From the NCBI RefSeq assembly GCF_947623445.1, contig NC_135248.1, positions 2,598,977 to 2,662,976 of the forward strand: a stretch of DNA of 64,000 nt. The letters are read 5' to 3'. Origin of the DNA: Clavelina lepadiformis (lineage: Eukaryota). Within the stretch, counting starts at the first letter, position 1. The number at the start of each line of letters is the position of its first letter. A program made the position numbers and the translations under genes. Below the pieces are notes generated by a model that ran no database searches, was not told the origin of the DNA, and was given only the letters and a program-made list of their open reading frames with translations. Below, piece after piece: positions 1 through 25,673 of the stretch.

Positions 1-2461
1 TGCCCAACTCCGAATGAAGTATGGATTGTTGGGTACTCAATAGTACATCATGTGTATAGACAGCACGGATCAATATATTTTGTTCCTTTTTCTTCTGCTC
101 TCCCAAACCCACAGTAACCTCCCATCAGGAGAATCCAGAAGTCTAAACCATAGGTCGGCAACCAGCGGCTCTTTCATCTCTGTGCTCTGGTTCCCGCCAC
201 TCAGAGCCAATGAGCTGATTTAGGAAAACTTAATGTGATTAGCTAATGGTGGTTATTAGTGTCACGATGTAATAACTTAATGCGTTTGTCTGATTATTAT
301 TCAGATTGTTTTATGGTGATGTGGAAAATCTTATATAAACACTACCCAGTGGTTTTCGCGGGCATACAACGCATGACTGCTTGCCACTCACGTGATCCTA
401 AGTTTGTTTTTGTTCGAGGTCGCATGACTTGGATATTGGTCTTTGTTTGATGACTCTGCGGATGTTCATCGTTGTAGTGAGAATTTTGTGAGGTTAACTA
501 CTGAAGTTTTTACGTCTAACTGTAAAGCATTGGTTCGAATTATACATATAGCGTTAGGTTTTTTGTTTTAAGTATCCAATTAGGTGTTGTGGATCTGAGT
601 AGGCTTTAGTTTGGCGGAAACGAAACCAAATGGCTCTTTCAATGCTAAAGGTTGCCGACCCGTGACTAAACAATTCGCGTTTGACCACATTTTCTACTTT
701 GTTCTCCGGGATACCCAGATTACTCACCTAAAGTAATTCATGGTCGAACCGTTGATATTTTACCGCTTGGTATAGCAAGCATGACTTGTTTTGCAAGTTT
801 TTTTAGGCATTCTGGTGACTTCATCATACCATCCTAGTTAGTAATGTGACGGTTACGTCACGAGTCACGAGTTGTTTTCGAAATGCTGGAGTTTTATTTT
901 GGCATCTTGCAATTCAGTTGTTGATCGGACTTGAATTCTCTTCTAATGACGTTCAGATAAATTACCTCGCTTGATCTGGTGTGCCATATATATACTGTTG
1001 TCATGTTTGCAATTATTCCTTTACGTATCGATTTCACTGGTTACTACTGCGCAATGTAACATTCAGTCAGCTTTGCCCGAAGGTGAAAGCCTTTGTGTCT
1101 AATAATAAATAAAAATGGGAACTTTATCATTTAGTAATATGCATAGACAGAATTTAAGCAACTAACAGCATAGTCACGCCGTTTGAGAAATGAGAACTCA
1201 TATCGTTGAAGAAGAAGTAAAACAAGTTATTACCATCAACCGTCCTCGCTCATACTATAGTAATAGTCGTCAGTGTACGCGGTCTTTATGGCGAATATGT
1301 TTGTTGTGTAATACTTCACACAAGTAATACAGCAACGAAAATACTTATTTGTCATAGGAAATCGCAATTTGAAGAAGTAAGGGTAAGTTAAGGGCTTTAA
1401 TTTTTAGAGAATGGCGTATTGCAGTGTTGTTCTATTCATCTGGTATAAGTTATACCATGAACACTTTTTAGAAATTCTGATTCTGAAACATCCACTTTCA
1501 AGCGCAATTTATTGGTAAATGTCCAAGCTTCATGACCATAGATGGAAATTGGAAGAAAAACTGATTTAAAAAATGAGAGCTTAGCGGATATTAGAAAGGC
1601 CTCGCTTGTTGAAGTTCACGTATGACTGCACTTGCTTTTAAATTCAATCTTTGGTCGATCATGAGTTGCGTTACCAGGCGTTTGACTCCCACCTGCTTCG
1701 GTGTTTCTCCGCAGACTTGAAAAGAAAACCAATGAAAACCGAGTAAGGGTTTCAAGAGATTAAATTCCTCGGTTTTCTTTACGATTATTTTTATCTCGAA
1801 ATGAACAATCGCAAATAAACAAAGATCTCTGGCAACCACATTCACAGTGGACGGTGACTTGCAACTGTTTAATGTCTATTTTTCAAACAGAAACAACCTT
1901 TAGAACGTTTGTACCGCAGTTTAATGGCTATTATAATACTATTTAATGGTTGCTGTCAATATCATACTTGTGCAACGCTCTCCAAAGTTAAATTCGAAGC
2001 ACTCAATGTTACGTTTTTAGGGTCAGAAAAGCATACGTAGGTATTTTTGCGTATTCCTAAAAAGTTTGCAAATCTGGGAAAAAAATCGTTAAGAATAGAA
2101 CATGTTGTCCAAAAATAGAATAAAAAGCATTCGTTGTTAAATTTAGTAAACTTACCTACCCAAGCATAACTAGGCCAGCACAGAACACGAAAGCAAACAA
2201 TAATATATGTGAGTTTAAACAGTGCATTAAACCTTTAATTTTAAATCCATTTTTCTAATTTCAACTTAGAAAAACGTCTGTTGGTTAAAATGTGATTATC
2301 AGGATCAGCAAAGAAGAAAATAAAGCAAATAAATGACTCAAAATTTATACATATCGAATATTATTACGCAAATGAGTAACTTTTTGGTTACTAGTTACTG
2401 GAATTTTTCGAGTACTGTGTTATATTTTAATTTGGTAAATAAGTTAATTAACGCATGACAG

Positions 2462-2469
2462 TGACGTCA
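2462..2469. promoter_or_regulatory. Perfect CRE palindrome TGACGTCA upstream of the U1 collectin gene. Conserved in all five units (U2 ~10958, U3 ~19459, U4 ~26463, U5 ~32901).
   Basis: Motif reading only. It lies ~390 bp upstream of the ATG in U3-U5, and ~1.2 kb upstream in U1/U2 because of the MITE. A TATA-like ctatttataca sits ~115 bp upstream of the ATG. Confidence 0.3.
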
Positions 2470-2718
2470 GTACGACAAAGCAAATTCACAGTACACTGGT
2501 AGTAGCCGCATAAGATATACGTCACATTTATCTACCTGTCTCAGAGACATAATGTATTTGTTAAAGTCTTCGACCTTTTGAAATTGCTCCAGGGTAATAC
2601 TTTAAATTATTTTACTCGACACTATATCGCTTAACAAAGTGGTCAAGTCTATATGCAATATAGTACTTATATTTTTTAAATATTGCAATGCCTGTTTTTT
2701 AATGTTGCAGTTTAAATA

Positions 2719-3522
2719 AGGTACCTGTACCGAATAAGATCCAGTCCCTAATAAGGCCCATTGCTCATATTTCGCAAACCCGTGCAAATAAATGAAAGAT
2801 TTTGTCCCTACATAAAAACTAGTATAAATTCATGATGGTTTACCAGATTTCATCCTTGTCACGTGATCAACCGATTCGCTAGAGCACAACAAAAATTTGA
2901 TATTTGCAGTTAAGATGGTTTTGTTAATTTAGAAAAAAAAGTAAGTGAGAATTTGGCCGGTTAAATGAACTGTTGTCAGCCGGCTGAAGTTTTCATGTAA
3001 CAACCAACTTAGTATTGAAAAGGATAATGCACTTTTTTTTGCAAAAATTTTTCTGATGATAAAAATGTGACATTTTTTTGGTGGATGCCACATGCGCCTA
3101 ATAAGGCCCATACAAGATGCTTGGCTAATTGATGTCCAGACTTCAAGAGTGGTTCCAGTCATCAGTTGGCAAATTGTTGCAGTTACTTTGATGCGCCCAG
3201 TGGAATCTTTTTAAATGTTTGTACAACTTAAAATGTGAAATTTCTAATAATGTTATATGTTGTCTATTACTTTGTTTTGAATCAAAATACTCACAAAATT
3301 GGTGGGCCTTATTAGGAGCCTATGCTCCTAATAAGGCCCATTTTTTGGAATTTTTAATTTCTTTATAAGAATTTTTTGGAGGGTTGTCAGGTAATGTGGT
3401 TTTAATATGTTGTAGTCCTATACCCTCACTAATAGAATACGATTCTTCAGTCTATTCTCATTTATGGTTCTTGAGTTATTTTCAAAAAAGTGTTAGGTGG
3501 GCCTTATTCGGTACAGGTACCT
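2719..3522. mobile_element. 804-bp Tc1/mariner-type MITE (non-autonomous) with TA target-site duplication. Lies in the proximal promoter of the U1 collectin gene.
   Basis: Terminal inverted repeats AGGTACCTGTACCGAATAAG ... CTTATTCGGTACAGGTACCT. TA on both flanks. Internal palindromes cctaataaggccc/gggccttattagg, including a 42-bp perfect palindrome at ~3301-3342. The empty site gt(t/g)taaaTAataggac is preserved in U3, U4 and U5. No ORF. Confidence 0.8.
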
Positions 3523-3661
3523 TAATAGGACTATTTGTACCAAAAACCACGTCATAAGTGCCCGCAAAAATATCGTTTATGTTGTTTTTATTTTCAATGT
3601 TCAACCTTAAGTCTATTTTCTAATAGATTAAGTCATTGTTCTGAAAAGTAATCACTAAGAC

Positions 3662-3914
3662 ATGATGATGATGATGCTTGTATGCTTCTTATTTGTCACC
3701 GCATCACTTGTAAACGGACAAGATTACTTGACTTGCTTGAGAAACAGTGACGCATTTGCTGGTATCAACCCTCAAGACACAGTATCCAACATTCGGGGCC
3801 CGCCAGGTTACCCTGGTAAACGGGGAAGTCCAGGTGACAGGGGTCTACAAGGTGACAAAGGTTCCAAGGGTGAACCCGGATCATCCGACCGTGAAGAAAT
3901 TAGACGCTTAAGAG
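3662..3914 (+). CDS. collectin-like C-type lectin, exon 1 of 4 (U1): signal peptide plus collagen-like region
   Basis: ORF 3662-3925 encodes MMMMMLVCFLFVTASLVNG (signal peptide) then GPPGYPGKRGSPGDRGLQGDKGSKGEPGSS, which is 10 Gly-X-Y triplets. Donor is AG|GTGTGC at 3915, phase 1. Confidence 0.7.
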
Positions 3915-4073
3915 GTGTGCGTTAGATCATACACTGACGTAGTGAATTGAACTGTTTCAATTTTCTCCTGATTTTATTTGCAATACATTATGTGGTCATA
4001 CTTGTAAGCTTTCAAAAATCATGTGACAATTTTGTTAGTTATGAATGTTTTATGCAGCTGATTTGCTTTTCAG

Positions 4074-4139
4074 AAACCCAAGCTCTTATAAATATCGCCA
4101 TAAGACCACTTCAGGACAAAATATCACGCCTGTGTCAAG
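4074..4139 (+). CDS. collectin-like gene, exon 2 (U1): neck
   Basis: Acceptor ttttcag|, 66 nt, phase 1 to phase 1, encoding ETQALINIAIRPLQDKISRLCQ. Donor AAG|GTTTGG. The acceptor choice is supported because a 1-bp deletion in U3 just upstream of it keeps this frame but breaks the alternative (tatgcag|ctg). Confidence 0.55.
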
Positions 4140-4240
4140 GTTTGGTGCCGTTGTTAATAATAATGTTTTCTTTGATATGATCTTATCGAGTTTTTAGATT
4201 TGTTAAAAAATAACCTGACTTTTTTCATCCTATCAGAAGT
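4091..4240 (+). repeat. 150-bp direct duplication flanking the MULE-like insert, copy A. Contains the 3' 49 nt of exon 2 plus its donor. Copy B is at 5430-5578.
   Basis: Sequence aatatcgccataagaccacttcaggacaaaatatcacgcctgtg(t/c)caaggtttg...cctatcagaagt occurs once in U3, U4 and U5 but twice in U1/U2. The two copies are ~8% diverged. Confidence 0.8.
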
Positions 4241-5429
4241 GGTATACCGACACTTAATCACGCGACACTTAATCACTCGACACTTAATCACCGACACATA
4301 ATCACTAGAACATTTAATCACGCGACACATAATCACTTGGATGCGACAGCACTTGGACAGCGCCTTTGTCTATACTCTATAGCCTGTCTATACCGTCTTT
4401 GTTCTTTCAACTGTACACAGTACATTTTGAACTTGTTCCCGGTCTTATTTCTGCAGCAGTTTACTGCCTCGTTCAAAATAAAACGCGAGCAACCTACGAT
4501 CGCTTCCTTGATGCAATTAAAACAATGATCCCCACTGCTGCACCGGAATGCGTTTTGCTCGATTTTGAGACTGCCGCAGTAAGTGCTTTCCGCACAGCAT
4601 TTCCTACTGCAAATGTTAGGAGTTGTTATTTTCACCTTACACAAAGCGTCCTGCGCAAAGTTAATGAAATTGGCATGAAATGTGACTACGAGTCTGATGA
4701 GTGATGACGAATTAAGAACAGCTGATAGGTGTTTACCAGCCTTAGCCATGGTCCCTTCCTCTGACGTAGTCGAGTCATTTCTGATCTTAGCTGATAGCAT
4801 GCCCGATCACGAGAAGATGCCTGAGCTGCTTTCGTATTTCGAACACACATATATCAGAGGCAGACGACATCCGGGACGTGGTGAAAATTACGGCTCAGCC
4901 ATCTTTCCAATCGAAAGTTGGAATCATTACGAAGCCGGGGCAGGTTGCATTGCAAGAACCACAAATGCAGTCGAAGGTTGGCATTTTGGTCTCGAAGTGC
5001 TTTTTCAATGCCACCACCCGACATTGTGGACTTTCATACAGGGAATTGAAAAAGACATTCAAATGCAACGTGCAAAGTTTCTGCAAGGAATTGCTGGTAC
5101 TCAACCTTCTATTCCAATACGGTACAAGGCACTGAAACTGCGCGTGCAAAACACAGTTGACCGTTATCTGTCAAGAGATTTTAGTTTATCTTCGTGCAGT
5201 TGCTTACATTTCCCATGCATGACATTGTTACCGAGTGTGTACCGTAGCCTTATCTGCGCAAGCAATGTTTAATCATTTTAACAAGTTCTTTTCAGGTTTA
5301 TATTTGTTTTTTCGTGTGTAGACATGCAATTTTCGATACTGTAAATGTGTGATTAAATGTCCGAGTGATTAGGCCTATGTGTCGGTGATTAAGTGTCGCG
5401 TGATTAAGTGTCACCAAACCATCAGAAGT
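4241..5429 (+). mobile_element. MULE (Mutator-like) DNA transposon remnant in intron 2 of the U1 collectin gene
   Basis: Terminal inverted repeats of ~85-95 bp (4241-4336 and 5347-5429) built from tandem 14-bp subrepeats cgacacttaatcac (gtgattaagtgtcg at the other end). Internal ORFs 4366-4704 and 4682-5272 (frameshifted) carry the MULE core motif LLDFETAAVSAFRTAFPTANVRSCYFHLTQSV and the motif TTNAVEGWHFGL. The ~300 aa total is too short to be autonomous. Confidence 0.6.
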
Positions 5430-5578
5430 AATATCGCCATAAGACCACTTCAGGACAAAATATCACGCCTGTGCCAAGGTTTGATGCCGTTGTTAATAAT
5501 GATGTTTCTTTGATATGATCTTATCGAGTTATTAGATTTGTTAAAAAAGAACCCCACTTTTTTCATCCTATCAGAAGT
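5430..5578 (+). repeat. 150-bp flanking duplication, copy B. Carries a second potential donor (CCAAG|GTTTGA) 1.3 kb downstream of exon 2.
   Basis: See copy A. Confidence 0.8.
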
Positions 5579-6004
5579 AACGCCATGCGAGCAAAGTTGT
5601 TTTGTTTGACTGTGTTTTCGCTGTTTTCTGCGCACGTACGAAAATTCTCCTGCTGGTCGGCTACATTCTGCCCTTTCACGCTTTAGATTTAAATTCATTT
5701 AAAATAAATTCAACAGGATGTTATGAAAGCCATTATAACTGGCGTTGAAAAGTACGTAGTTCAGACCGAAAATGCTAGTTCTTGACTATCCCTTGGAAGC
5801 TTGTAGTATCAACCATGCTCAGAAATCAGGAACGTATCTGAAAGTCTTTAGTCGGCCTATACTAAGCTAATAAAAAATTGAAAATTTGTTATTTAACTCG
5901 TTTCTTCTTTGTACTTCTTCCTAAATGATATACTATGCTTATCAATGCTGACACTGGCAGTTTCTTATTGGATTAATTACTTTTTACAACTACTTCTTTC
6001 CAAG

Positions 6005-6152
6005 TTGCTGAAAGTGGTTGGTATACGCCGTTTAACGGATATCAATATCGCCTTACTGAAACTGAACAAAACTGGCAAGAAAGTCGACGTTTGTGCCAAG
6101 CAATGGGCGGTGATCTGGCCGCTGTTGGAATGAGGAACGTCGTCATTCGAAG
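6005..6152 (+). CDS. collectin-like gene, exon 3 (U1): N-terminal half of the C-type lectin domain
   Basis: Acceptor ccaag|, 148 nt, phase 1. Encodes (V)AESGWYTPFNGYQYRLTETEQNWQESRRLCQAMGGDLAAVGMRNVVIR, a typical CTLD start (GW..F.G..Y....T..W..A...C...GG.LA). Donor AG|GTTAGA. Confidence 0.7.
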
Positions 6153-6260
6153 GTTAGAAGTGGAATAAAACTGTCACATAAATGAAATATTACCACAACC
6201 ACGTCCAGAAATGTGCATCACTGTAATGGCAGAAGACAACGAAGTAACGTTTTTTTGCAG

Positions 6261-6525
6261 GAAACTTCTCACCGAAGTATTTAAATTTGTCCAAAATGTG
6301 TGGATAGGACTGAATGACATTTCCCGAGAAGGACAGTGGATGTGGATAGACGGTGTACAAGCGGCTGAAGGAAACGTCAACTGGTTAGCTGGTGAACCAA
6401 ACAATTCAGGAGATGAAGATTGTGCTGTGGTGAATGTGCCTGGCCACAACGGTGCAGTCGATTATCCATGTTCCTGGACCAAAATCGCTTTATGTGAAAA
6501 AATTGTCACAGACACTTGTCAGTAA
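6261..6525 (+). CDS. collectin-like gene, exon 4 (U1): C-terminal half of the CTLD with EPN motif, then stop
   Basis: Acceptor tttttttgcag|. Encodes KLLTEVFKFVQNVWIGLNDISREGQWMWIDG...AGEPNNSGDEDCAVVN...ALCEK. Stop TAA at 6523-6525. AATAAA at ~6654 and ~6666. Confidence 0.75.
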
Positions 6526-8116
6526 GAGTTTGTGCAAAACTTGTGTCGTCTGCTTTTGATTGCAAAATTCCGTTTGCTGTCATCCATCTGAGTATTACGT
6601 CATTACGTATAATCTTCCAGTGAACGCTTTAAAAACACGGATAAACTTGTAAAAATAAAACTATAAATAAACTACCTAACACGAAGCAGAGGTGATTAAT
6701 AGCAGAATGCACGTAAAACATTTTATTCGACTCTGTTTAACTTGCATGTATGTTTTCTACGACGTCCTGCATTCATCAGCAGCGTTAAAGTTGGAATGAT
6801 GTAAATAACGGAAATTAATCAATAAACAACAACAACAATGTTTTAACAAGATAAAGAATATCATTGCTTCTCAGCCGGTGAGTCGCAAAGCTTTTTCAGG
6901 TGGGCCACGTAGATTGCTGAAATGTTTCTTTGCAAAACTGCAATATCTGTACCGCAAATGGGCGCCACCCACCGGCGGACCCAGCAACAACTAATATTGC
7001 ACACAAAAAAAGACAATTGAAGTATGGACAAGTGTTCAGTCGAGTCGTTGCAGTGAACGATAGCGTAATACGCGGACTAATTTGAATGCTGCAGACCCAA
7101 CGGTTCATAAGATTTCACCTACGCATGAAATTGCAGAGATGATTGCAAAATTAACATGAGGTATCATATAAGTATATAATCGTTTTCCCTCAATGCCAAC
7201 ACAGTTACAACAAAAACAAAAAAAGAAAATAAGCATTAATGCTGGTTATGCAAAAGCACATGACGAAGGTGTTAAACTGCTTACTTATCAATAATGCAAT
7301 TCTTTGGGTTGATTTGAACGGTATGACTTCGCTTTACATGTATATTTACTACAGAAATGGCTGCAAGAACAAGAGTTATAATGATGCAACACTGCCCAAT
7401 AAATGCGATCGTAAACATACACCGCAAAGTTAAGATTATTATCATTCCCATAATTTTGTGTGTCATTGTAAACGCTGTACTATTATTTGGTTCAAAAGTA
7501 GTGGATGGTTGTTGTTTTGCACCGACTGGTAATAGGATCGCGGGTTGTTAATACGTCAACAGTAGCAATCGTACACAACAACGCAAGGCTTGAAAGGGAA
7601 CATTGTGAAAGCCGTTTAGAAAAAGGTACAATGTGCTTTGTCCTAAGGTGCAAATCGATTTTTTCCAGAAAACAAAGTAAGTCCTACAGGACAAAAAGCC
7701 AAACTTCGTTATTTCAGTTTGTTTCATTTCAAAGAACGCTATTGAGACTAAAAACTCTGATACTGACAGTGAACGGTTTATCAGCTTACAGAAACAGTGT
7801 AGTTTGAAAAGTTTTCATGCGTGAAATTTGAGAAAACATTTTGCAACATGTTAATTGATTGAAGATCCTGAAAAGTATAGAAAATTAATTAAGATTAAAG
7901 ATAACAAAAATGTAAAAGTAAAACAGCAAGAAAAATGATGACAAGTTGAGGGAAAATCATTTGTTTACTACGCGACTGGTTACAGTTTTCGTGAATCGGT
8001 CACCGACATTTTGCCGTCACACAACACACAAAATTTAAAACCAAAGCTCAGTTAGTGTTATCATAAATACATAAGTAGCCTTTACACAATACACATAAAA
8101 ACAAATATACACAGTA

Positions 8117-8150
8117 TATATATATATATATATATATATATACTGTGTAA
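8117..8150. repeat. (TA)n microsatellite embedded in a palindrome cacagta(ta)n tactgtg. Also at 16613-16646.
   Basis: Direct reading. U3 and U4 have only a few TA units at the orthologous site. Confidence 0.9.
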
Positions 8151-11100
8151 TGTGTATATAAACTACCCGCAATTTGTCTTAACATTTTGTGTGTTATGCA
8201 AAGTGTAGTCGGTTGTGAAATAAATGGTAAGAAAAAAACGAACCGTAGCAGATATGACAGATAAATAAGCGCGTTGGTAGATCTCGTTATTTTAGAATGA
8301 GAGGCAAGTGCCGTAATAAGTTAACTTGAAAGTAATAAAAGGCTTTGTGTAAGTTCACTTGAAAATTTATGTTCATGAGTATTTATAAGAACCAAGCATT
8401 TAGCTCCAAAAGTCTGCCGCAAAATGTCGCAAATTTACCACTCACTGTAAACTGGGTGTTGAGAATTTTGACGCTTCAATGTAAAATCGACTTGCATGCC
8501 CAACTCCGAATGAAGTATGGATTGTTGGGTACTCAATAGTACATCATGTGTATAGACAGCACGGATCAATATATTTTGTTCCTTTTTCTTCTGCTCTCCC
8601 AAACCCACAGTAACCTCCCATCAGGAGAATCCAGAAGTCTAAACCATAGGTCGGCAACCAGCGGCTCTTTCATCTCTGTGCTCTGGTTCCCGCCACTCAG
8701 AGCCAATGAGCTGATTTAGGAAAACTTAATGTGATTAGCTAATGGTGGTTATTAGTGTCACGATGTAATAACTTAATGCGTTTGTCTGATTATTATTCAG
8801 ATTGTTTTATGGTGATGTGGAAAATCTTATATAAACACTACCCAGTGGTTTTCGCGGGCATACAACGCATGACTGCTTGCCACTCACGTGATCCTAAGTT
8901 TGTTTTTGTTCGAGGTCGCATGACTTGGATATTGGTCTTTGTTTGATGACTCTGCGGATGTTCATCGTTGTAGTGAGAATTTTGTGAGGTTAACTACTGA
9001 AGTTTTTACGTCTAACTGTAAAGCATTGGTTCGAATTATACATATAGCGTTAGGTTTTTTGTTTTAAGTATCCAATTAGGTGTTGTGGATCTGAGTAGGC
9101 TTTAGTTTGGCGGAAACGAAACCAAATGGCTCTTTCAATGCTAAAGGTTGCCGACCCGTGACTAAACAATTCGCGTTTGACCACATTTTCTACTTTGTTC
9201 TCCGGGATACCCAGATTACTCACCTAAAGTAATTCATGGTCGAACCGTTGATATTTTACCGCTTGGTATAGCAAGCATGACTTGTTTTGCAAGTTTTTTT
9301 AGGCATTCTGGTGACTTCATCATACCATCCTAGTTAGTAATGTGACGGTTACGTCACGAGTCACGAGTTGTTTTCGAAATGCTGGAGTTTTATTTTGGCA
9401 TCTTGCAATTCAGTTGTTGATCGGACTTGAATTCTCTTCTAATGACGTTCAGATAAATTACCTCGCTTGATCTGGTGTGCCATATATATACTGTTGTCAT
9501 GTTTGCAATTATTCCTTTACGTATCGATTTCACTGGTTACTACTGCGCAATGTAACATTCAGTCAGCTTTGCCCGAAGGTGAAAGCCTTTGTGTCTAATA
9601 ATAAATAAAAATGGGAACTTTATCATTTAGTAATATGCATAGACAGAATTTAAGCAACTAACAGCATAGTCACGCCGTTTGAGAAATGAGAACTCATATC
9701 GTTGAAGAAGAAGTAAAACAAGTTATTACCATCAACCGTCCTCGCTCATACTATAGTAATAGTCGTCAGTGTACGCGGTCTTTATGGCGAATATGTTTGT
9801 TGTGTAATACTTCACACAAGTAATACAGCAACGAAAATACTTATTTGTCATAGGAAATCGCAATTTGAAGAAGTAAGGGTAAGTTAAGGGCTTTAATTTT
9901 TAGAGAATGGCGTATTGCAGTGTTGTTCTATTCATCTGGTATAAGTTATACCATGAACACTTTTTAGAAATTCTGATTCTGAAACATCCACTTTCAAGCG
10001 CAATTTATTGGTAAATGTCCAAGCTTCATGACCATAGATGGAAATTGGAAGAAAAACTGATTTAAAAAATGAGAGCTTAGCGGATATTAGAAAGGCCTCG
10101 CTTGTTGAAGTTCACGTATGACTGCACTTGCTTTTAAATTCAATCTTTGGTCGATCATGAGTTGCGTTACCAGGCGTTTGACTCCCACCTGCTTCGGTGT
10201 TTCTCCGCAGACTTGAAAAGAAAACCAATGAAAACCGAGTAAGGGTTTCAAGAGATTAAATTCCTCGGTTTTCTTTACGATTATTTTTATCTCGAAATGA
10301 ACAATCGCAAATAAACAAAGATCTCTGGCAACCACATTCACAGTGGACGGTGACTTGCAACTGTTTAATGTCTATTTTTCAAACAGAAACAACCTTTAGA
10401 ACGTTTGTACCGCAGTTTAATGGCTATTATAATACTATTTAATGGTTGCTGTCAATATCATACTTGTGCAACGCTCTCCAAAGTTAAATTCGAAGCACTC
10501 AATGTTACGTTTTTAGGGTCAGAAAAGCATACGTAGGTATTTTTGCGTATTCCTAAAAAGTTTGCAAATCTGGGAAAAAAATCGTTAAGAATAGAACATG
10601 TTGTCCAAAAATAGAATAAAAAGCATTCGTTGTTAAATTTAGTAAACTTACCTACCCAAGCATAACTAGGCCAGCACAGAACACGAAAGCAAACAATAAT
10701 ATATGTGAGTTTAAACAGTGCATTAAACCTTTAATTTTAAATCCATTTTTCTAATTTCAACTTAGAAAAACGTCTGTTGGTTAAAATGTGATTATCAGGA
10801 TCAGCAAAGAAGAAAATAAAGCAAATAAATGACTCAAAATTTATACATATCGAATATTATTACGCAAATGAGTAACTTTTTGGTTACTAGTTACTGGAAT
10901 TTTTCGAGTACTGTGTTATATTTTAATTTGGTAAATAAGTTAATTAACGCATGACAGTGACGTCAGTACGACAAAGCAAATTCACAGTACACTGGTAGTA
11001 GCCGCATAAGATATACGTCACATTTATCTACCTGTCTCAGAGACATAATGTATTTGTTAAAGTCTTCGACCTTTTGAAATTGCTCCAGGGTAATACTTTA

Positions 11101-11214
11101 AATTATTTTACTCGACACTATATCGCTTAACAAAGTGGTCAAGTCTATATGCAATATAGTACTTATATTTTTTAAATATTGCAATGCCTGTTTTTTAATG
11201 TTGCAGTTTAAATA

Positions 11215-12018
11215 AGGTACCTGTACCGAATAAGATCCAGTCCCTAATAAGGCCCATTGCTCATATTTCGCAAACCCGTGCAAATAAATGAAAGATTTTG
11301 TCCCTACATAAAAACTAGTATAAATTCATGATGGTTTACCAGATTTCATCCTTGTCACGTGATCAACCGATTCGCTAGAGCACAACAAAAATTTGATATT
11401 TGCAGTTAAGATGGTTTTGTTAATTTAGAAAAAAAAGTAAGTGAGAATTTGGCCGGTTAAATGAACTGTTGTCAGCCGGCTGAAGTTTTCATGTAACAAC
11501 CAACTTAGTATTGAAAAGGATAATGCACTTTTTTTTGCAAAAATTTTTCTGATGATAAAAATGTGACATTTTTTTGGTGGATGCCACATGCGCCTAATAA
11601 GGCCCATACAAGATGCTTGGCTAATTGATGTCCAGACTTCAAGAGTGGTTCCAGTCATCAGTTGGCAAATTGTTGCAGTTACTTTGATGCGCCCAGTGGA
11701 ATCTTTTTAAATGTTTGTACAACTTAAAATGTGAAATTTCTAATAATGTTATATGTTGTCTATTACTTTGTTTTGAATCAAAATACTCACAAAATTGGTG
11801 GGCCTTATTAGGAGCCTATGCTCCTAATAAGGCCCATTTTTTGGAATTTTTAATTTCTTTATAAGAATTTTTTGGAGGGTTGTCAGGTAATGTGGTTTTA
11901 ATATGTTGTAGTCCTATACCCTCACTAATAGAATACGATTCTTCAGTCTATTCTCATTTATGGTTCTTGAGTTATTTTCAAAAAAGTGTTAGGTGGGCCT
12001 TATTCGGTACAGGTACCT
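11215..12018. mobile_element. Same MITE, U2 copy
   Basis: U1 coordinates + 8496. Confidence 0.8.
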
Positions 12019-12157
12019 TAATAGGACTATTTGTACCAAAAACCACGTCATAAGTGCCCGCAAAAATATCGTTTATGTTGTTTTTATTTTCAATGTTCAA
12101 CCTTAAGTCTATTTTCTAATAGATTAAGTCATTGTTCTGAAAAGTAATCACTAAGAC

Positions 12158-12410
12158 ATGATGATGATGATGCTTGTATGCTTCTTATTTGTCACCGCAT
12201 CACTTGTAAACGGACAAGATTACTTGACTTGCTTGAGAAACAGTGACGCATTTGCTGGTATCAACCCTCAAGACACAGTATCCAACATTCGGGGCCCGCC
12301 AGGTTACCCTGGTAAACGGGGAAGTCCAGGTGACAGGGGTCTACAAGGTGACAAAGGTTCCAAGGGTGAACCCGGATCATCCGACCGTGAAGAAATTAGA
12401 CGCTTAAGAG
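12158..12410 (+). CDS. collectin-like gene, exon 1 (U2, identical to U1)
   Basis: ORF 12158-12421 is identical to 3662-3925. Confidence 0.7.
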
Positions 12411-12569
12411 GTGTGCGTTAGATCATACACTGACGTAGTGAATTGAACTGTTTCAATTTTCTCCTGATTTTATTTGCAATACATTATGTGGTCATACTTG
12501 TAAGCTTTCAAAAATCATGTGACAATTTTGTTAGTTATGAATGTTTTATGCAGCTGATTTGCTTTTCAG

Positions 12570-12635
12570 AAACCCAAGCTCTTATAAATATCGCCATAAG
12601 ACCACTTCAGGACAAAATATCACGCCTGTGTCAAG
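12570..12635 (+). CDS. collectin-like gene, exon 2 (U2)
   Basis: U1 coordinates + 8496; identical sequence. Confidence 0.55.
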
Positions 12636-12736
12636 GTTTGGTGCCGTTGTTAATAATAATGTTTTCTTTGATATGATCTTATCGAGTTTTTAGATTTGTT
12701 AAAAAATAACCTGACTTTTTTCATCCTATCAGAAGT

Positions 12737-13925
12737 GGTATACCGACACTTAATCACGCGACACTTAATCACTCGACACTTAATCACCGACACATAATCA
12801 CTAGAACATTTAATCACGCGACACATAATCACTTGGATGCGACAGCACTTGGACAGCGCCTTTGTCTATACTCTATAGCCTGTCTATACCGTCTTTGTTC
12901 TTTCAACTGTACACAGTACATTTTGAACTTGTTCCCGGTCTTATTTCTGCAGCAGTTTACTGCCTCGTTCAAAATAAAACGCGAGCAACCTACGATCGCT
13001 TCCTTGATGCAATTAAAACAATGATCCCCACTGCTGCACCGGAATGCGTTTTGCTCGATTTTGAGACTGCCGCAGTAAGTGCTTTCCGCACAGCATTTCC
13101 TACTGCAAATGTTAGGAGTTGTTATTTTCACCTTACACAAAGCGTCCTGCGCAAAGTTAATGAAATTGGCATGAAATGTGACTACGAGTCTGATGAGTGA
13201 TGACGAATTAAGAACAGCTGATAGGTGTTTACCAGCCTTAGCCATGGTCCCTTCCTCTGACGTAGTCGAGTCATTTCTGATCTTAGCTGATAGCATGCCC
13301 GATCACGAGAAGATGCCTGAGCTGCTTTCGTATTTCGAACACACATATATCAGAGGCAGACGACATCCGGGACGTGGTGAAAATTACGGCTCAGCCATCT
13401 TTCCAATCGAAAGTTGGAATCATTACGAAGCCGGGGCAGGTTGCATTGCAAGAACCACAAATGCAGTCGAAGGTTGGCATTTTGGTCTCGAAGTGCTTTT
13501 TCAATGCCACCACCCGACATTGTGGACTTTCATACAGGGAATTGAAAAAGACATTCAAATGCAACGTGCAAAGTTTCTGCAAGGAATTGCTGGTACTCAA
13601 CCTTCTATTCCAATACGGTACAAGGCACTGAAACTGCGCGTGCAAAACACAGTTGACCGTTATCTGTCAAGAGATTTTAGTTTATCTTCGTGCAGTTGCT
13701 TACATTTCCCATGCATGACATTGTTACCGAGTGTGTACCGTAGCCTTATCTGCGCAAGCAATGTTTAATCATTTTAACAAGTTCTTTTCAGGTTTATATT
13801 TGTTTTTTCGTGTGTAGACATGCAATTTTCGATACTGTAAATGTGTGATTAAATGTCCGAGTGATTAGGCCTATGTGTCGGTGATTAAGTGTCGCGTGAT
13901 TAAGTGTCACCAAACCATCAGAAGT
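12737..13925 (+). mobile_element. MULE-like element, U2 copy
   Basis: U1 coordinates + 8496; identical ORFs 12862-13200 and 13178-13768. Confidence 0.6.
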
Positions 13926-14500
13926 AATATCGCCATAAGACCACTTCAGGACAAAATATCACGCCTGTGCCAAGGTTTGATGCCGTTGTTAATAATGATG
14001 TTTCTTTGATATGATCTTATCGAGTTATTAGATTTGTTAAAAAAGAACCCCACTTTTTTCATCCTATCAGAAGTAACGCCATGCGAGCAAAGTTGTTTTG
14101 TTTGACTGTGTTTTCGCTGTTTTCTGCGCACGTACGAAAATTCTCCTGCTGGTCGGCTACATTCTGCCCTTTCACGCTTTAGATTTAAATTCATTTAAAA
14201 TAAATTCAACAGGATGTTATGAAAGCCATTATAACTGGCGTTGAAAAGTACGTAGTTCAGACCGAAAATGCTAGTTCTTGACTATCCCTTGGAAGCTTGT
14301 AGTATCAACCATGCTCAGAAATCAGGAACGTATCTGAAAGTCTTTAGTCGGCCTATACTAAGCTAATAAAAAATTGAAAATTTGTTATTTAACTCGTTTC
14401 TTCTTTGTACTTCTTCCTAAATGATATACTATGCTTATCAATGCTGACACTGGCAGTTTCTTATTGGATTAATTACTTTTTACAACTACTTCTTTCCAAG

Positions 14501-14648
14501 TTGCTGAAAGTGGTTGGTATACGCCGTTTAACGGATATCAATATCGCCTTACTGAAACTGAACAAAACTGGCAAGAAAGTCGACGTTTGTGCCAAGCAAT
14601 GGGCGGTGATCTGGCCGCTGTTGGAATGAGGAACGTCGTCATTCGAAG
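14501..14648 (+). CDS. collectin-like gene, exon 3 (U2)
   Basis: U1 coordinates + 8496; identical sequence. Confidence 0.7.
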
Positions 14649-14756
14649 GTTAGAAGTGGAATAAAACTGTCACATAAATGAAATATTACCACAACCACGT
14701 CCAGAAATGTGCATCACTGTAATGGCAGAAGACAACGAAGTAACGTTTTTTTGCAG

Positions 14757-15021
14757 GAAACTTCTCACCGAAGTATTTAAATTTGTCCAAAATGTGTGGA
14801 TAGGACTGAATGACATTTCCCGAGAAGGACAGTGGATGTGGATAGACGGTGTACAAGCGGCTGAAGGAAACGTCAACTGGTTAGCTGGTGAACCAAACAA
14901 TTCAGGAGATGAAGATTGTGCTGTGGTGAATGTGCCTGGCCACAACGGTGCAGTCGATTATCCATGTTCCTGGACCAAAATCGCTTTATGTGAAAAAATT
15001 GTCACAGACACTTGTCAGTAA
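14757..15021 (+). CDS. collectin-like gene, exon 4 (U2)
   Basis: ORF 14707-15021 is identical to 6211-6525. Confidence 0.75.
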
Positions 15022-18000
15022 GAGTTTGTGCAAAACTTGTGTCGTCTGCTTTTGATTGCAAAATTCCGTTTGCTGTCATCCATCTGAGTATTACGTCATT
15101 ACGTATAATCTTCCAGTGAACGCTTTAAAAACACGGATAAACTTGTAAAAATAAAACTATAAATAAACTACCTAACACGAAGCAGAGGTGATTAATAGCA
15201 GAATGCACGTAAAACATTTTATTCGACTCTGTTTAACTTGCATGTATGTTTTCTACGACGTCCTGCATTCATCAGCAGCGTTAAAGTTGGAATGATGTAA
15301 ATAACGGAAATTAATCAATAAACAACAACAACAATGTTTTAACAAGATAAAGAATATCATTGCTTCTCAGCCGGTGAGTCGCAAAGCTTTTTCAGGTGGG
15401 CCACGTAGATTGCTGAAATGTTTCTTTGCAAAACTGCAATATCTGTACCGCAAATGGGCGCCACCCACCGGCGGACCCAGCAACAACTAATATTGCACAC
15501 AAAAAAAGACAATTGAAGTATGGACAAGTGTTCAGTCGAGTCGTTGCAGTGAACGATAGCGTAATACGCGGACTAATTTGAATGCTGCAGACCCAACGGT
15601 TCATAAGATTTCACCTACGCATGAAATTGCAGAGATGATTGCAAAATTAACATGAGGTATCATATAAGTATATAATCGTTTTCCCTCAATGCCAACACAG
15701 TTACAACAAAAACAAAAAAAGAAAATAAGCATTAATGCTGGTTATGCAAAAGCACATGACGAAGGTGTTAAACTGCTTACTTATCAATAATGCAATTCTT
15801 TGGGTTGATTTGAACGGTATGACTTCGCTTTACATGTATATTTACTACAGAAATGGCTGCAAGAACAAGAGTTATAATGATGCAACACTGCCCAATAAAT
15901 GCGATCGTAAACATACACCGCAAAGTTAAGATTATTATCATTCCCATAATTTTGTGTGTCATTGTAAACGCTGTACTATTATTTGGTTCAAAAGTAGTGG
16001 ATGGTTGTTGTTTTGCACCGACTGGTAATAGGATCGCGGGTTGTTAATACGTCAACAGTAGCAATCGTACACAACAACGCAAGGCTTGAAAGGGAACATT
16101 GTGAAAGCCGTTTAGAAAAAGGTACAATGTGCTTTGTCCTAAGGTGCAAATCGATTTTTTCCAGAAAACAAAGTAAGTCCTACAGGACAAAAAGCCAAAC
16201 TTCGTTATTTCAGTTTGTTTCATTTCAAAGAACGCTATTGAGACTAAAAACTCTGATACTGACAGTGAACGGTTTATCAGCTTACAGAAACAGTGTAGTT
16301 TGAAAAGTTTTCATGCGTGAAATTTGAGAAAACATTTTGCAACATGTTAATTGATTGAAGATCCTGAAAAGTATAGAAAATTAATTAAGATTAAAGATAA
16401 CAAAAATGTAAAAGTAAAACAGCAAGAAAAATGATGACAAGTTGAGGGAAAATCATTTGTTTACTACGCGACTGGTTACAGTTTTCGTGAATCGGTCACC
16501 GACATTTTGCCGTCACACAACACACAAAATTTAAAACCAAAGCTCAGTTAGTGTTATCATAAATACATAAGTAGCCTTTACACAATACACATAAAAACAA
16601 ATATACACAGTATATATATATATATATATATATATATACTGTGTAATGTGTATATAAACTACCCGCAATTTGTCTTAACATTTTGTGTGTTATGCAAAGT
16701 GTAGTCGGTTGTGAAATAAATGGTAAGAAAAAAACGAACCGTAGCAGATATGACAGATAAATAAGCGCGTTGGTAGATCTCGTTATTTTAGAATGAGAGG
16801 CAAGTGCCGTAATAAGTTAACTTGAAAGTAATAAAAGGCTTTGTGTAAGTTCACTTGAAAATTTATGTTCATGAGTATTTATAAGAACCAAGCATTTAGC
16901 TCCAAAAGTCTGCCGCAAAATGTCGCAAATTTACCACTCACTGTAAACTGGGTGTTGAGAATTTTGACGCTTCAATGTAAAATCGACTTGCATGCCCAAC
17001 TCCGAATGAAGTATGGATTGTTGGGTACTCAATAGTACATCATGTGTATAGACAGCACGGATCAATATATTTTGTTCCTTTTTCTTCTGCTCTCCCAAAC
17101 CCACAGTAACCTCCCATCAGGAGAATCCAGAAGTCTAAACCATAGGTCGGCAACCAGCGGCTCTTTCATCTCTGTGCTCTGGTTCCCGCCACTCAGAGCC
17201 AATGAGCTGATTTAGGAAAACTTAATGTGATTAGCTAATGGTGGTTATTAGTGTCACGATGTAATAACTTAATGCGTTTGTCTGATTATTATTCAGATTG
17301 TTTTATGGTGATGTGGAAAATCTTATATAAACACTACCCAGTGGTTTTCGCGGGCATACAACGCATGACTGCTTGCCACTCACGTGATCCTAAGTTTGTT
17401 TTTGTTCGAGGTCGCATGACTTGGATATTGGTCTTTGTTTGATGACTCTGCGGATGTTCATCGTTGTAGTGAGAATTTTGTGAGGTTAACTACTGAAGTT
17501 TTTACGTCTAACTGTAAAGCATTGGTTCGAATTATACATATAGCGTTAGGTTTTTTGTTTTAAGTATCCAATTAGGTGTTGTGGATCTGAGTAGGCTTTA
17601 GTTTGGCGGAAACGAAACCAAATGGCTCTTTCAATGCTAAAGGTTGCCGACCCGTGACTAAACAATTCGCGTTTGACCACATTTTCTACTTTGTTCTCCG
17701 GGATACCCAGATTACTCACCTAAAGTAATTCATGGTCGAACCGTTGATATTTTACCGCTTGGTATAGCAAGCATGACTTGTTTTGCAAGTTTTTTTAGGC
17801 ATTCTGGTGACTTCATCATACCATCCTAGTTAGTAATGTGACGGTTACGTCACGAGTCACGAGTTGTTTTCGAAATGCTGGAGTTTTATTTTGGCATCTT
17901 GCAATTCAGTTGTTGATCGGACTTGAATTCTCTTCTAATGACGTTCAGATAAATTACCTCGCTTGATCTGGTGTGCCATATATATACTGTTGTCATGTTT

Positions 18001-19856
18001 GCAATTATTCCTTTACGTATCGATTTCACTGGTTACTACTGCGCAATGTAACATTCAGTCAGCTTTGCCCGAAGGTGAAAGCCTTTGTGTCTAATAATAA
18101 ATAAAAATGGGAACTTTATCATTTAGTAATATGCATAGACAGAATTTAAGCAACTAACAGCATAGTCACGCCGTTTGAGAAATGAGAACTCATATCGTTG
18201 AAGAAGAAGTAAAACAAGTTATTACCATCAACCGTCCTCGCTCATACTATAGTAATAGTCGTCAGTGTACGCGGTCTTTATGGCGAATATGTTTGTTGTG
18301 TAATACTTCACACAAGTAATACAGCAACGAAAATACTTATTTGTCATAGGAAATCGCAATTTGAAGAAGTAAGGGTAAGTTAAGGGCTTTAATTTTTAGA
18401 GAATGGCGTATTGCAGTGTTGTTCTATTCATCTGGTATAAGTTATACCATGAACACTTTTTAGAAATTCTGATTCTGAAACATCCACTTTCAAGCGCAAT
18501 TTATTGGTAAATGTCCAAGCTTCATGACCATAGATGGAAATTGGAAGAAAAACTGATTTAAAAAATGAGAGCTTAGCGGATATTAGAAAGGCCTCGCTTG
18601 TTGAAGTTCACGTATGACTGCACTTGCTTTTAAATTCAATCTTTGGTCGATCATGAGTTGCGTTACCAGGCGTTTGACTCCCACCTGCTTCGGTGTTTCT
18701 CCGCAGACTTGAAAAGAAAACCAATGAAAACCGAGTAAGGGTTTCAAGAGATTAAATTCCTCGGTTTTCTTTACGATTATTTTTATCTCGAAATGAACAA
18801 TCGCAAATAAACAAAGATCTCTGGCAACCACATTCACAGTGGACGGTGACTTACGACTGTTTAGTGTTTATTTTTCAAACGGAAACAACTCTTAGAACGT
18901 TTGTACCGCAGTTTAATGGCCACTATAATACTATTTAATGGCTGCTATCAATATCATACTTGTGCAACGCTCTCCAGAGTTAAATTCGAAGCACTCAATG
19001 CTACGTTTTTTTAGGATCAGAAAAGCATACGTAGCCATTTTTGCGTATTCCTAACAAGTTTGCAAATCTGGGAAAAAAATTCGTTAAGTGTAGAACATGT
19101 TGTCCAAAAATAGAATAAAAAGGCATTCGGTGTTAAAATTAGTAAACTTACCTACCCATGCATAACTAGGCCAGCACAGAACACGAAATCAAACAATAAT
19201 ATATGTAAGTTTAAACAGTGCATTAAACCTTTAATTTTAAATCCAATTTTCTAATTTCAACTTAGAAAAACGTCTGTTGGTTAAAATGTGATCATCAGGA
19301 TCAGCAAAAAAGAAAATAAAAGCAAATAAATGACTCAAAATTTATACATATCGAATATTATTACACAAATGAGTAACTTTTTGGTTACTAGTTACTGGAA
19401 TTTTTCGATTACTGTGTTATATATTAATTTGGTAAATAAGTTAATTAACTCATGACAGTGACGTCAGTACGTCTAAGCAAATTCACAGTACACTGGTAGT
19501 AGCCGCATAAGATATACGTCAGATTTATCTACCTGTCTCAGAGACATAATGTATTTGTTAAAGTCTTCGACCTTTTGAAATTGCTCCAGCGTAATACTTT
19601 AAATTATATTACTCGGCATTATATCGCTTGACAGAGTGGTCAAGTCTATATGCATTATAGTACTTATTTTTTAAATATTGCAATGCCTGTTTTTTAATGT
19701 TGCAGTTTAAACAATAGGACTATTTATACAAAAAACAACGTCATAAGTGCCCGTGAAAATATCGTTTATGTTGTTTTTATTTTCAATGTTCAACCTTACG
19801 CCTATTTTCTTATAGATTAAGTCTTTGTTCTGAAAAGTAAACACTAAGACAAAATA

Positions 19857-25054: not shown

Positions 25055-25441
25055 TATTAGCATGCTGTGATTGATCTGTTTAGCCAACTTGCTGAAGAGT
25101 GATGCCTGATGCGTGTTCCTGTTTCTTTGTAATAAATGTGAAAGTAATTGATACGTTATTGTAGCGGCTAATTGGGCCAGTAGTGGGTTGATTGTGAGCG
25201 CTTTCGCTAATTCAGTAATAGTAGGTTAGTAGGAGGAGGTGTTCTTTTTGCAGCTAGGTTATTGAAAGAACTTATTTCGTACCGGTAGGCTACTTGTTTG
25301 CATTTCATGTGCAAAAATCATTTGAATGTGGAAGCCTTTATCACCTGCAAAATTAATACTGATTTTTCCTGGTGAGATTGTTTTGAGAACATAAAGTCGA
25401 ATAAAGACTTCTTGAAGAAAGTATTGTCTACAGAAAAGTAT

Positions 25442-25673
25442 GATTGGGCGACTATGTAATAATACAAATGCTTAAACATTGTTTTTTTTCATAGTTAAAT
25501 GCATTATTTTAGTTTTTCCTTGTGTCTTACTACTTTAATTGTCCATGACGATAGGAATGCAAATTACTTTCATATACTCCTAGTTAAATATGAACCACAT
25601 TTATCTGATAAGGCTCGTTGTTCTGAAGTGTCCCGGTTTTCAATCACAAAAATATGTTATGCCTAGATATAGC
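25442..25673. repeat. Dispersed ~240-bp repeat, copy 1
   Basis: ~85% identical to 46590-46831 (gggcgac(t/c)atgtaa...atgcattatttta...aggaatgcaaa...tatgaaccac...cccggttttcaatcacaaaaatatg). No ORF. Confidence 0.6.

Follow-up and report, generated by a model that had tools for sequence, protein, structure and literature searches.

Mutator-like elements (MULEs) duplicate 8-11 bp of their target upon insertion, and the target-site duplications (TSDs) of the Phantom group, Tunicata included, measure 8-10 bp (PMC6446971). Alternative transposition, as in the reversed-ends and sister-chromatid reactions of Ac/Ds and the hybrid element insertion of P elements (RET, SCT and HEI), is known to leave two tandem direct copies of a segment with one DNA transposon where they meet. 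For Ac/Ds, the endpoints of such duplications lie at the transposon termini, and the matching TSD of the seam element is one-sided (PMC3744419). Host fragments also come to be associated with elements that have terminal inverted repeats (TIRs) through Pack-MULE or Pack-TIR gap filling or FoSTeST (PMC8277862), in which the captured DNA is enclosed by the TIRs and travels along with the element. Finally, slippage, FoSTeS and MMEJ give rise to short head-to-tail tandem duplications with microhomology.

We compared with these systems a locus of Clavelina lepadiformis at which two copies of a host segment of about 150 bp flank a transposon. The window, by which we mean the whole stretch of DNA analyzed, is 64,000 nt long (GCF_947623445.1, NC_135248.1, positions 2,598,977 to 2,662,976, forward strand). 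What we found is an ordinary dead MULE, with a TSD of 9 bp, that lies within an intron of a recently amplified lectin gene and beside a small tandem duplication; the locus contains no 150-bp target duplication.

A MULE and a short tandem duplication in a lectin-gene intron

The host gene is collectin-like (collagen plus C-type lectin) and carries the RefSeq name "CD209 antigen-like protein C". A spliced model (3662-3914 / 4074-4139 / 6005-6152 / 6261-6526) translates into a protein identical at 243/243 residues to RefSeq product P0133, with Pfam matches to Lectin_C (E = 2.1e-14) and to Collagen (E = 6.3e-06; its 26.3 bits fall slightly under the Pfam cut-off of 27.2 bits). Positions 1-10356 of the window are base-for-base identical to positions 8497-18852 (offset 8,496), and the structure described here is thus present twice, in array units 1 and 2 (U1 and U2). 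In units 3, 4 and 5 (U3, U4 and U5) the 150-bp segment is single-copy and holds no insert, and an independent metagenome contig (L003) likewise has a single copy and an empty site.

Table 1. Positions of the features in the window
Feature	Position	Strand	Description
Exon 2, collectin-like gene	4074..4139	+	66 nt, phase 1; donor GT 4140-4141
Copy A	4091..4240	+	Final 49 nt of exon 2 and first 101 nt of intron 2; 3' end is ATCAGAAGT
Left TSD copy ATCAGAAGT	4232..4240	.	Final 9 bases of copy A
Non-autonomous MULE (Mutator-like) deletion derivative	4241..5420	+	1,180 bp; termini GGTATACCGACACTTAATCAC... and ...GTGATTAAGTGTCACCAAACC
Left TIR and six 15-bp subterminal repeats	4241..4337	+	GACACTTAATCAC core
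Transposase remnant	4426..5200	+	Two reading frames, frameshift near 4700; CYFH and NAVEGWH motifs
Right TIR and three subterminal repeats	5349..5420	-	
Right TSD copy ATCAGAAGT	5421..5429	.	Between element and copy B
Copy B	5430..5578	+	149 bp; exon-2-like 49 nt, peptide NIAIRPLQDKISRLCQ identical to that of A; GT 5479-5480
Second instance, array unit 2	12587..14074	+	A 12587-12736, element 12737-13916, TSD 13917-13925, B 13926-14074

The direct repeat that an earlier, sequence-only reading of this DNA had described is real (BLAST E = 1e-63). Its copies, A and B, are separated by 1,189 bp that contain the MULE element, so that the locus has the order X-A-TE-tsd-B-Y, where Y is the sequence 3' of copy B (Table 1). 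The same reading had put the divergence of the copies at ~8% and had half of exon 2 duplicated; we count 7 substitutions and one 1-nt indel in 150 columns (5.3% divergence, 94.67% identity), and the duplicated part is about three quarters of the exon (the 3' 49 of 66 nt).

The assignment of the insert to the MULEs held up, as its transposase remnant matches PF10551 (E = 2.6e-10, 41.1 bits against a Pfam gathering cut-off of 27.6). We recovered 111 homologues; the majority contain PF10551, and several also the FLYWCH finger PF04500. The remnant spans only residues 182-426 of a 444-aa FLYWCH+MULE relative, and the N-terminal ~180 residues, FLYWCH finger included, are missing. With this span alone retained and a frameshift within it, this copy contains no complete DDE catalytic core and is a dead, non-autonomous member of its family. 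Self-BLAST detected no host-unit sequence inside the element, whose interior consists of the transposase remnant only.

The inverted-repeat arms are about 36-37 nt long with a complementarity of 89-97%, and the subterminal repeat motif occurs 16 times in the window, where 0.17 matches are expected. Two further members of the family from C. lepadiformis (L001 and L002) are 90-97% identical to the window element. The asymmetric termini GGTRTACC... and ...ACCAAACC are common to all three copies. The three copies are differing internal-deletion derivatives, and with its 6 and 3 subterminal repeats the window copy falls short of the 11-15 in the other two. With metazoan Phantom/FLYWCH MULEs the element shares the MULE domain, the FLYWCH finger of its full-length relatives, TIRs with subterminal repeats, an 8-9-bp TSD and the presence of internally deleted copies; beside MULEs of this type, nothing about the element itself is unusual.

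An exact 9-bp direct repeat, ATCAGAAGT, abuts both termini of the element, which are fixed by the three-copy comparison. This repeat had been overlooked; a 9/9 match at a fixed position is expected by chance with a probability of 4^-9, or about 4e-6. The TSDs of the other family copies are of similar length, with 9 bp at L001 (AATGGACGC) and 8 bp at L002 (CTTTGTTT). The premise that the 150-bp copies take the place of a TSD was therefore wrong, as the element has a normal one, but the accompanying statement that they are not a fresh TSD was correct, since a separate 9-bp TSD intervenes. Copy B does not abut the element, as the right-hand TSD separates the two. A staggered long cut yielding a 150-bp TSD is ruled out by the exact 9-bp TSD here and the 8-9-bp TSDs of the other copies. 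In the 400-bp flanks of L001 and L002 (two copies only) we found no direct match longer than 11 bp besides the TSD, which speaks against long diverged flank duplications as a property of this family.

Order of the duplication and the insertion

When positions 4241-5429 are removed, the remaining sequence is a clean tandem repeat, to which TRF assigned a period of 149, 2.0 copies, 94% matches and a score of 546. Directly 3' of copy B stands an unaltered empty site, ...ATCAGAAGT|AACGCC. At the boundaries of the duplication there is a microhomology of 2 bp, in that the segment and Y both begin with AA. In these respects, the locus is like a simple microhomology-mediated short tandem duplication made by slippage, FoSTeS or MMEJ: the two copies stand head to tail, the AA microhomology is short, and the segment is single-copy in the paralogous units U3, U4 and U5 and in L003. 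What sets it apart from a plain duplication of that kind is the transposon with its TSD that fills the seam.

Like the products of alternative transposition, the locus is a two-copy tandem direct duplication whose seam holds one DNA transposon; here, however, the 9-bp TSD is present on both sides, and the endpoint of the duplication (5429|5430) lies 9 bp outside the right terminus of the element (5420). We rejected RET, SCT and HEI, whose predicted junctions have the duplication begin at the element terminus, beside a flank that does not match, and have a footprint or a doubled TSD at B|Y; none of this was observed. No unit has a second copy of the element, and there is no excision footprint at the outer breakpoint, where the B|Y junction equals the empty site of U3, U5 and L003. 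With Pack-MULE and Pack-TIR capture the locus has in common a cis-derived host fragment of about 150 bp beside a TIR element and a 2-bp microhomology at the breakpoint. Capture itself is ruled out, as the host copy lies outside the TIRs and also outside the TSD.

We favor a history, to which we give a probability of roughly 0.55, in which a tandem duplication on the lineage of array unit 1 was followed by an ordinary MULE insertion at its seam. The anatomy of the locus, the TSD lengths here and elsewhere in the family, the empty single-copy state of the paralogous units and the derived bases common to A and B are read directly from sequence; the order of the two events is inferred. A 150-bp segment across the boundary of exon 2 and intron 2 would first have been duplicated head to tail by replication slippage, template switching or end-joining, any of which fits the AA microhomology. 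A MULE would then have integrated by cut-and-paste into the final 9 bp of copy A, giving the TSD ATCAGAAGT; an insertion in these last 9 bp places the element exactly at the seam. The element would subsequently have decayed into its internally deleted, frameshifted remnant, copies A and B would have diverged through point mutation and through short tracts of gene conversion by other lectin-array units, and the entire 8.5-kb unit would have been amplified to give identical U1 and U2, with splicing continuing from the copy-A donor over the element and copy B. As U1 and U2 have both the duplication and the insertion and U3-U5 and L003 have neither, the two events fall after the split of U1 from the other units and before the amplification of the unit. 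A normal insertion leaves the arrangement "left flank-tsd-TE-tsd-right flank", and thus every junction of the locus is covered by standard steps.

Sequence divergence is compatible with this history. Based on the 97.1% identity of the element to its nearest copy, 4.3-8.6 substitutions are expected between A and B, and the 7 observed fit this age (P(>=7) = 0.15-0.76); the divergence of the copies and the age of the element overlap within error, so that they do not tell the two orders of events apart. Two observations count against a duplication that came first. The probability that a random insertion abuts this single seam is about 3 in 54,000, and none of the units and contigs compared showed the duplication with an element-free seam. 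As a cause of the coincidence, target-site preference was not adopted: no common motif is obvious among the three target sites of the family, which are too few to judge such a preference. The base-exact placement at the seam is unexplained by the favored history; the rest of the structure is mostly ordinary.

The strongest competitor reverses the order of events, and we regard it as unlikely, although well ahead of the alternatives that follow. Here the MULE would have inserted into a single-copy site, and the duplication would have been made later by a FoSTeS/MMBIR-type or aberrant gap-repair event. In this model, a fork or repair synthesis would stall at the inverted and subterminal repeats near the right end of the element, the nascent strand would move to an element-free homologue or sister and copy the empty site together with 150 nt of upstream sequence, and it would return to the original template at the AA immediately outside the right TSD. 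This route accounts for an endpoint of the duplication within 9 bp of the element, for the pristine empty site at B|Y and the 2-bp microhomology, and, if B came from a diverged allele, for the differences between A and B. It is also in keeping with a TRF search of the window (about 54 kb once redundancy is removed), which returned no further short tandem duplications, and with the internal deletions that differ among the three family copies, the usual product of interrupted gap repair. Template switching at TIR elements is documented in animals, with a median microhomology of 2 bp, a cis bias and small copied segments, but in the documented cases the copied DNA lies inside the element and not outside the TSD (PMC8277862).

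Other points weaken the template-switch route. It requires two switches and is ad hoc, and since it gives no reason for a return exactly at the outer TSD edge instead of at the terminus, it removes the coincidence only in part. U4 and a short, U4-like metagenome contig (L004) form the one likely allelic pair available, and their divergence of 1.3% is well below the value for A and B. Aberrant gap repair, as the sequence-only reading had suggested, does not in its standard versions predict the order TE-tsd-B or the pristine empty site at B|Y. Excision with two-template gap repair and a single-end cut with filler DNA, which predict TE|B without a TSD or a clipped extra flap, were not adopted.

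Should the element have provoked the duplication by such a template switch, the locus would define a class of flank duplications that lie next to transposons but beyond the TIR and TSD, an external counterpart of Pack-TIR gap filling, and exon ends with their splice donors could be duplicated beside intronic DNA transposons. That the element sits to the base at the seam of the window's sole short tandem duplication may be a hint that TIR elements induce local duplications by template switching beyond their own ends.

Array units and the remaining alternatives

Substitution distances from copy A are 4.7% to B, 5.4% to U3, 6.7% to U5 and 10.4% to U4. The earlier proposal that A resembles U5 and B resembles U3 thus fails for A, which is nearest to B and then to U3, while B is equidistant from A and U3 (4.7% each). 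At offsets 4-5 of the segment, A and B alone carry a derived AT where U3, U4, U5 and L003 have GA, and therefore B was copied from the lineage of this same unit. At 4 of the 7 substitutions between A and B, both states occur in other units (P about 0.001). The inter-unit signal that the sequence-only reading had detected is thus real, and its source is better sought elsewhere than in a junction of two units: the pattern of shared states points to short gene-conversion tracts from other array units, which would have shaped the differences between A and B.

The reading as a two-unit junction, in which A came from a U5-like and B from a U3-like unit and a transposon was fixed where recombination joined them, is largely contradicted, and we consider it improbable. 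Besides the shared states just described, it draws on offsets 121 and 127, at which B has the state of U3 and L003 and A that of U4 and U5, and on offset 126, at which B and all other units have C and a T is unique to A. Against it stand the shared derived AT and the closeness of A to B and U3 rather than to U5. Moreover, the affinities are flipped at offsets 45 and 55, where B is like U5 and U4, and Y, immediately after B, starts with bases typical of U4/U5 and not of U3. The U3-like patch in B is therefore shorter than about 40 bp, as a short conversion tract predicts. Unequal exchange, furthermore, would duplicate the 8.5-kb unit and not 150 bp. To revive this reading, a unit outside the window would have to carry AATATCGCC and the other states of B in a single copy. 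Recombination between two insertions and TSD-mediated exchange were likewise rejected, as the flanking 9-mers that they need are absent.

Where short direct repeats flank long inverted repeats, precise deletion between the direct repeats is promoted, as is known mainly from bacterial transposons. A history that draws on this process duplicates copy A, element and TSD in tandem as a 1,339-bp block and then loses the second element precisely through slippage between its 9-bp TSDs, which would yield the observed order. We hold it to be very unlikely, since it adds a rare step of which no unit keeps a trace in the form of a second element, and its breakpoint must still hit the outer edge of the TSD exactly.

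Least probable of all is a haplotype mis-assembly that would have produced copy B or the entire unit, even with U1 and U2 100% identical across 10.4 kb and with haplotypic duplications removed in curation (PMC10884593), which we counted in its favor: on a single contig, A and B are 1.3 kb from each other, a distance well covered by individual HiFi reads (12-20 kb, 117x coverage), the junctions are clean with a self-consistent TSD logic, and the RefSeq products of 242 and 243 aa that both exist for these lectin genes argue for several real units.

An exact 19-mer scan of metagenome contigs gave 13 matches, all by chance and without homology to the window, and no contigs were found that encode the RefSeq lectin proteins P0112, P0113 and P0114 or the 243-aa model. 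The very recent amplification of the 8.5-kb unit and the gene conversion between units bear on the evolution of lectin families in tunicate innate immunity.

Splicing past copy B

The second exon-2-like 3' end with its own GT donor, which had been noted before as a potential source of aberrant splicing, is present 1.34 kb downstream of the first (Table 1). RefSeq products P0133 and P0112 fit the splice from 4139 to 6005, and neither includes an isoform with extra sequence. Copy B is thus skipped in the annotated mRNA, and the donor of copy A is the sole one used by the RefSeq protein. The donor of copy B could still give rise to aberrant splicing, of which the annotation shows no sign. If a transcript took up copy B by way of the nearest AG upstream of it (5424-5425), the resulting exon would, by our reckoning, be 53 nt long and shift the reading frame.

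The lectin array and the repeated exon 2 segment

The DNA is eukaryotic and contains a tandem array of collectin-like genes, each encoding a signal peptide, a short collagen stretch, a neck and a C-type lectin domain with an EPN motif. The spliced model of unit 1 matched Pfam Lectin_C (E = 2.1e-14) and, weakly, Collagen (E = 6.3e-06; 26.3 bits, just missing the cut-off of 27.2 bits), and was identical at 243/243 residues to P0133, which RefSeq lists for the tunicate Clavelina lepadiformis as 'CD209 antigen-like protein C'. Self-comparison of the window identified five units (U1-U5), with U3, U4 and U5 diverging from U1 by 4-10%. Positions 1-10356 recur at 8497-18852 without a single mismatch in 10,356 bp, an exact tandem repeat with a period of 8,496 bp, so U1 and U2 are the same, transposon and both 150-bp copies included; this identity reflects either very recent amplification or assembly over-expansion. 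As identical 243-aa and 242-aa products occur under five RefSeq accessions, our analysis suggests that at least five near-identical lectin units exist, some upstream of the window.

The lectin start codon lies within an (ATG)5 run (3662-3676), and the two RefSeq products differ by one N-terminal Met, so this (ATG)n microsatellite varies between units. A perfect 17-nt palindrome at 3303-3340 (TGGGCCTTATTAGGAGC / GCTCCTAATAAGGCCCA) and related GGGCCTTATTAGG motifs at 3089-3111 and 3496-3518 are found 150-570 bp upstream of the start codon; the palindrome may derive from a MITE-like element or serve as a regulatory motif. Relative to U1, U4 has ~1.66 kb of extra sequence (25061-26719) between the conserved upstream block and exon 1, in which we found no terminal inverted repeats and no obvious target-site duplication (TSD). 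The intergenic spacer contains a (TA)n microsatellite inside a perfect palindrome (CACAGTATATAT...ATATACTGTG) at ~8113-8150.

Features of the locus and other copies of the element family
Feature	Position	Length	Source or remark
U1	about 3400-7400
U1 spliced model	exons 3662-3914, 4074-4139, 6005-6152, 6261-6526
U2	U1 + 8,496 bp		base-for-base identical to U1
U3	about 19.7-22.3 kb
U4	about 26.7-29.4 kb
U5	about 33.2-35.3 kb
Copy A	4091-4240	150 bp	BLAST
Mutator-like element	4241-5420	1,180 bp
Copy B	5430-5578	149 bp	BLAST
Family copy L001	5758-6844 of L001		C. lepadiformis GCA_961645235.1, non-autonomous
Family copy L002	5571-6938 of L002		C. lepadiformis GCA_961645235.1, non-autonomous

The direct repeat reported around the insert in intron 2 of U1 is real (94.67% identity between A and B, BLAST E = 1e-63), and its divergence is 5.3% (7 substitutions and one 1-nt indel) rather than the ~8% given in the sequence-only reading. 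Copy A takes in the final 49 nt of exon 2 (66 nt in all) and 101 nt of intron 2, and both copies encode the same 16 residues followed by a GT, at 4140 in A and 5479 in B. The segment is single-copy and the insert absent in U3, U4 and U5, as well as in L003, an independent genomic contig (1.2 kb) of marine metagenome origin, where CCTATCAGAAGT is followed directly by AACGCCATG.

We aligned A, B, U3, U4, U5 and L003. At offsets 4-5 of the segment, AT is unique to A and B, the other four having GA. Substitution distances from A were 4.7% (B), 5.4% (U3), 6.7% (U5) and 10.4% (U4), and B was 4.7% from both A and U3; the proposed resemblance of A to U5 therefore fails, since A is closest to B and then U3, while that of B to U3 holds weakly. 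At four of the seven A/B substitutions (offsets 45, 55, 121 and 127) both states occur among the other units, with conflicting affinities (P ~0.001 for at least 4 shared-state sites under a simple null model of new mutations, computed with 8 differences, the indel being split by the multiple alignment; slightly smaller with 7). Immediately after B the first bases match the U4/U5 type, which limits the U3-like patch in B to less than about 40 bp. Conflicting affinities of this kind are what short gene-conversion tracts leave behind in a tandem array, rather than a junction between two whole units.

Clavelina-like host DNA occurs in marine metagenome assembly ERZ909262 (run ERR771006) as two contigs. 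One (L004), probably an allele of U4, matches that unit at 98.7% identity over 708 bp; L003 differs by at least 7.6% from every window unit and is thus probably a unit outside the window. Exact-protein lookups of the RefSeq lectins returned no match, and a 19-mer scan of metagenome contigs gave 13 chance matches, none homologous.

The Mutator-like element and its target-site duplication

Identification of the insert as a Mutator-like element (MULE) is borne out by its inverted termini (GGTATACCGACACTTAATCAC... at the left and, in reverse complement, GGTTTGGTGACACTTAATCAC... at the right), by arrays of a 15-bp subterminal repeat (16 motif matches in the window vs 0.17 expected, all within the two identical element copies in U1 and U2) and by two ORF fragments in different frames that jointly match the MULE transposase domain PF10551 (E = 2.6e-10, above the gathering score). 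We found 111 transposase homologues, most with PF10551 and several also with a FLYWCH finger; the nearest named ones, at 92-95% identity, come from C. lepadiformis. As the window copy covers only residues 182-426 of a 444-aa relative and contains a frameshift near 4700, it is a non-autonomous remnant.

The nine bases that end copy A (4232-4240, ATCAGAAGT) occur again at 5421-5429, directly after the right terminus of the element, and copy B begins only after this second occurrence, which the sequence-only reading missed. To test this repeat as a TSD, we examined the two C. lepadiformis loci that code for our closest protein matches. At each we found a further internal-deletion derivative of this family whose termini are those of the window copy, with an asymmetric terminal 8 nt common to all three copies; the deletions differ from one another, and the two further copies have 11-15 subterminal repeats per end vs 6 and 3 in the window copy. 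Their TSDs are AATGGACGC (9 bp) and CTTTGTTT (8 bp), and comparison of 400 bp of left flank with 400 bp of right flank gave no direct match >11 bp at either. TSDs of MULEs are generally 8-11 bp, and 8-10 bp in the Phantom group, which includes tunicate elements (PMC6446971). Together, these data indicate that the TSD of the window element is perfectly normal and that the 150-bp copies are no substitute for it. In agreement with the sequence-only reading, the copies are thus not a fresh TSD. Nor are long flank repeats a property of the family, the condition which that reading had set for its own refutation, both other copies (n=2) lacking them.

Order of events at the locus

With X and Y the host sequence left of A and right of B, the order along the locus is X - A(...tsd) - TE - tsd - B(...tsd) - Y. 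Ordinary insertion leaves left flank, TSD, element, TSD and right flank, so the simplest reading is that X-A-B-Y was already present and that the element would have taken the final 9 bp of copy A as its target. Removing 4241-5429 yields a clean head-to-tail two-copy duplication (TRF period 149, 2.0 copies, score 546), and the junction of B with Y equals the empty site of U3, U5 and L003, with no excision footprint. The segment opens with AATATC... and is followed by AACGCC..., the two having AA alone in common. We favor two independent ordinary events, tandem duplication and then MULE insertion (probability about 0.55): the tandem duplication behind the 150-bp repeats is separate from the element, specific to this lineage and since blurred by gene conversion, and the dead MULE itself is ordinary, its 9-bp TSD standard.

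From the 97.1% identity of the element with its nearest copy, 4.3-8.6 A/B substitutions are expected vs 7 observed; the A/B divergence fits a duplication of about the insertion's age and does not give the relative order of the two. As TRF found no other short tandem duplication in the ~54 kb of non-redundant sequence in the window, duplication first implies a base-exact landing on the sole such seam (~3 in 54,000 per insertion in the window). The C. lepadiformis genome is 210 Mb with 43.9% repeats (PMC10884593, PMC10950049); a few such coincidences are expected genome-wide, and this case was noticed precisely through its coincidence. The exactness of the element's fit to the seam is the one unexplained feature.

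We derived the junctions expected under each other model and compared them with the locus. The only causal model matching all junctions is a template switch, in which fork or repair synthesis stalls at the element's right end, moves to an element-free homologue, copies 150 nt back past the empty site and returns at the AA just outside the TSD. This model is kin to documented template switching at TIR (terminal inverted repeat) elements in animals (PMC8277862), but it is ad hoc and does not of itself dictate a return at the TSD edge; we consider it possible but clearly less likely than two independent ordinary events. If A, element and TSD had been duplicated together (1,339 bp) and the second element then lost precisely, the observed order would result, but this requires an extra rare step and still needs the breakpoint coincidence. 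Had excision been followed by gap repair, or a single-end cut been repaired with filler DNA, the element would directly abut B, where the TSD in fact intervenes; a long staggered cut would give no inner 9-bp TSD. In Pack-TIR/Pack-MULE capture host DNA lies between the TIRs (PMC8277862), whereas the copy here is external to both TIR and TSD. Under alternative transposition (reversed-ends or sister-chromatid in Ac/Ds, hybrid-element insertion in P), the duplication should end precisely at the transposon termini, the element at the seam should have a TSD match on just one of its sides, and an outer breakpoint should show a footprint or a second element (PMC3744419); all three expectations are contradicted here, the TSD being present on both sides.

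A candidate splice donor in copy B

Copy B does contain a second exon 2-like 3' end with a candidate donor, CAAG/GTTTGA compared with CAAG/GTTTGG in copy A. The RefSeq products fit a splice that joins 4139 to 6005 and skips both the element and copy B, and no isoform with extra sequence is present among their five accessions. If the copy B donor were used with the closest AG upstream of it, which lies within the right TSD (5424-5425), the result would be a 53-nt frameshifting exon.
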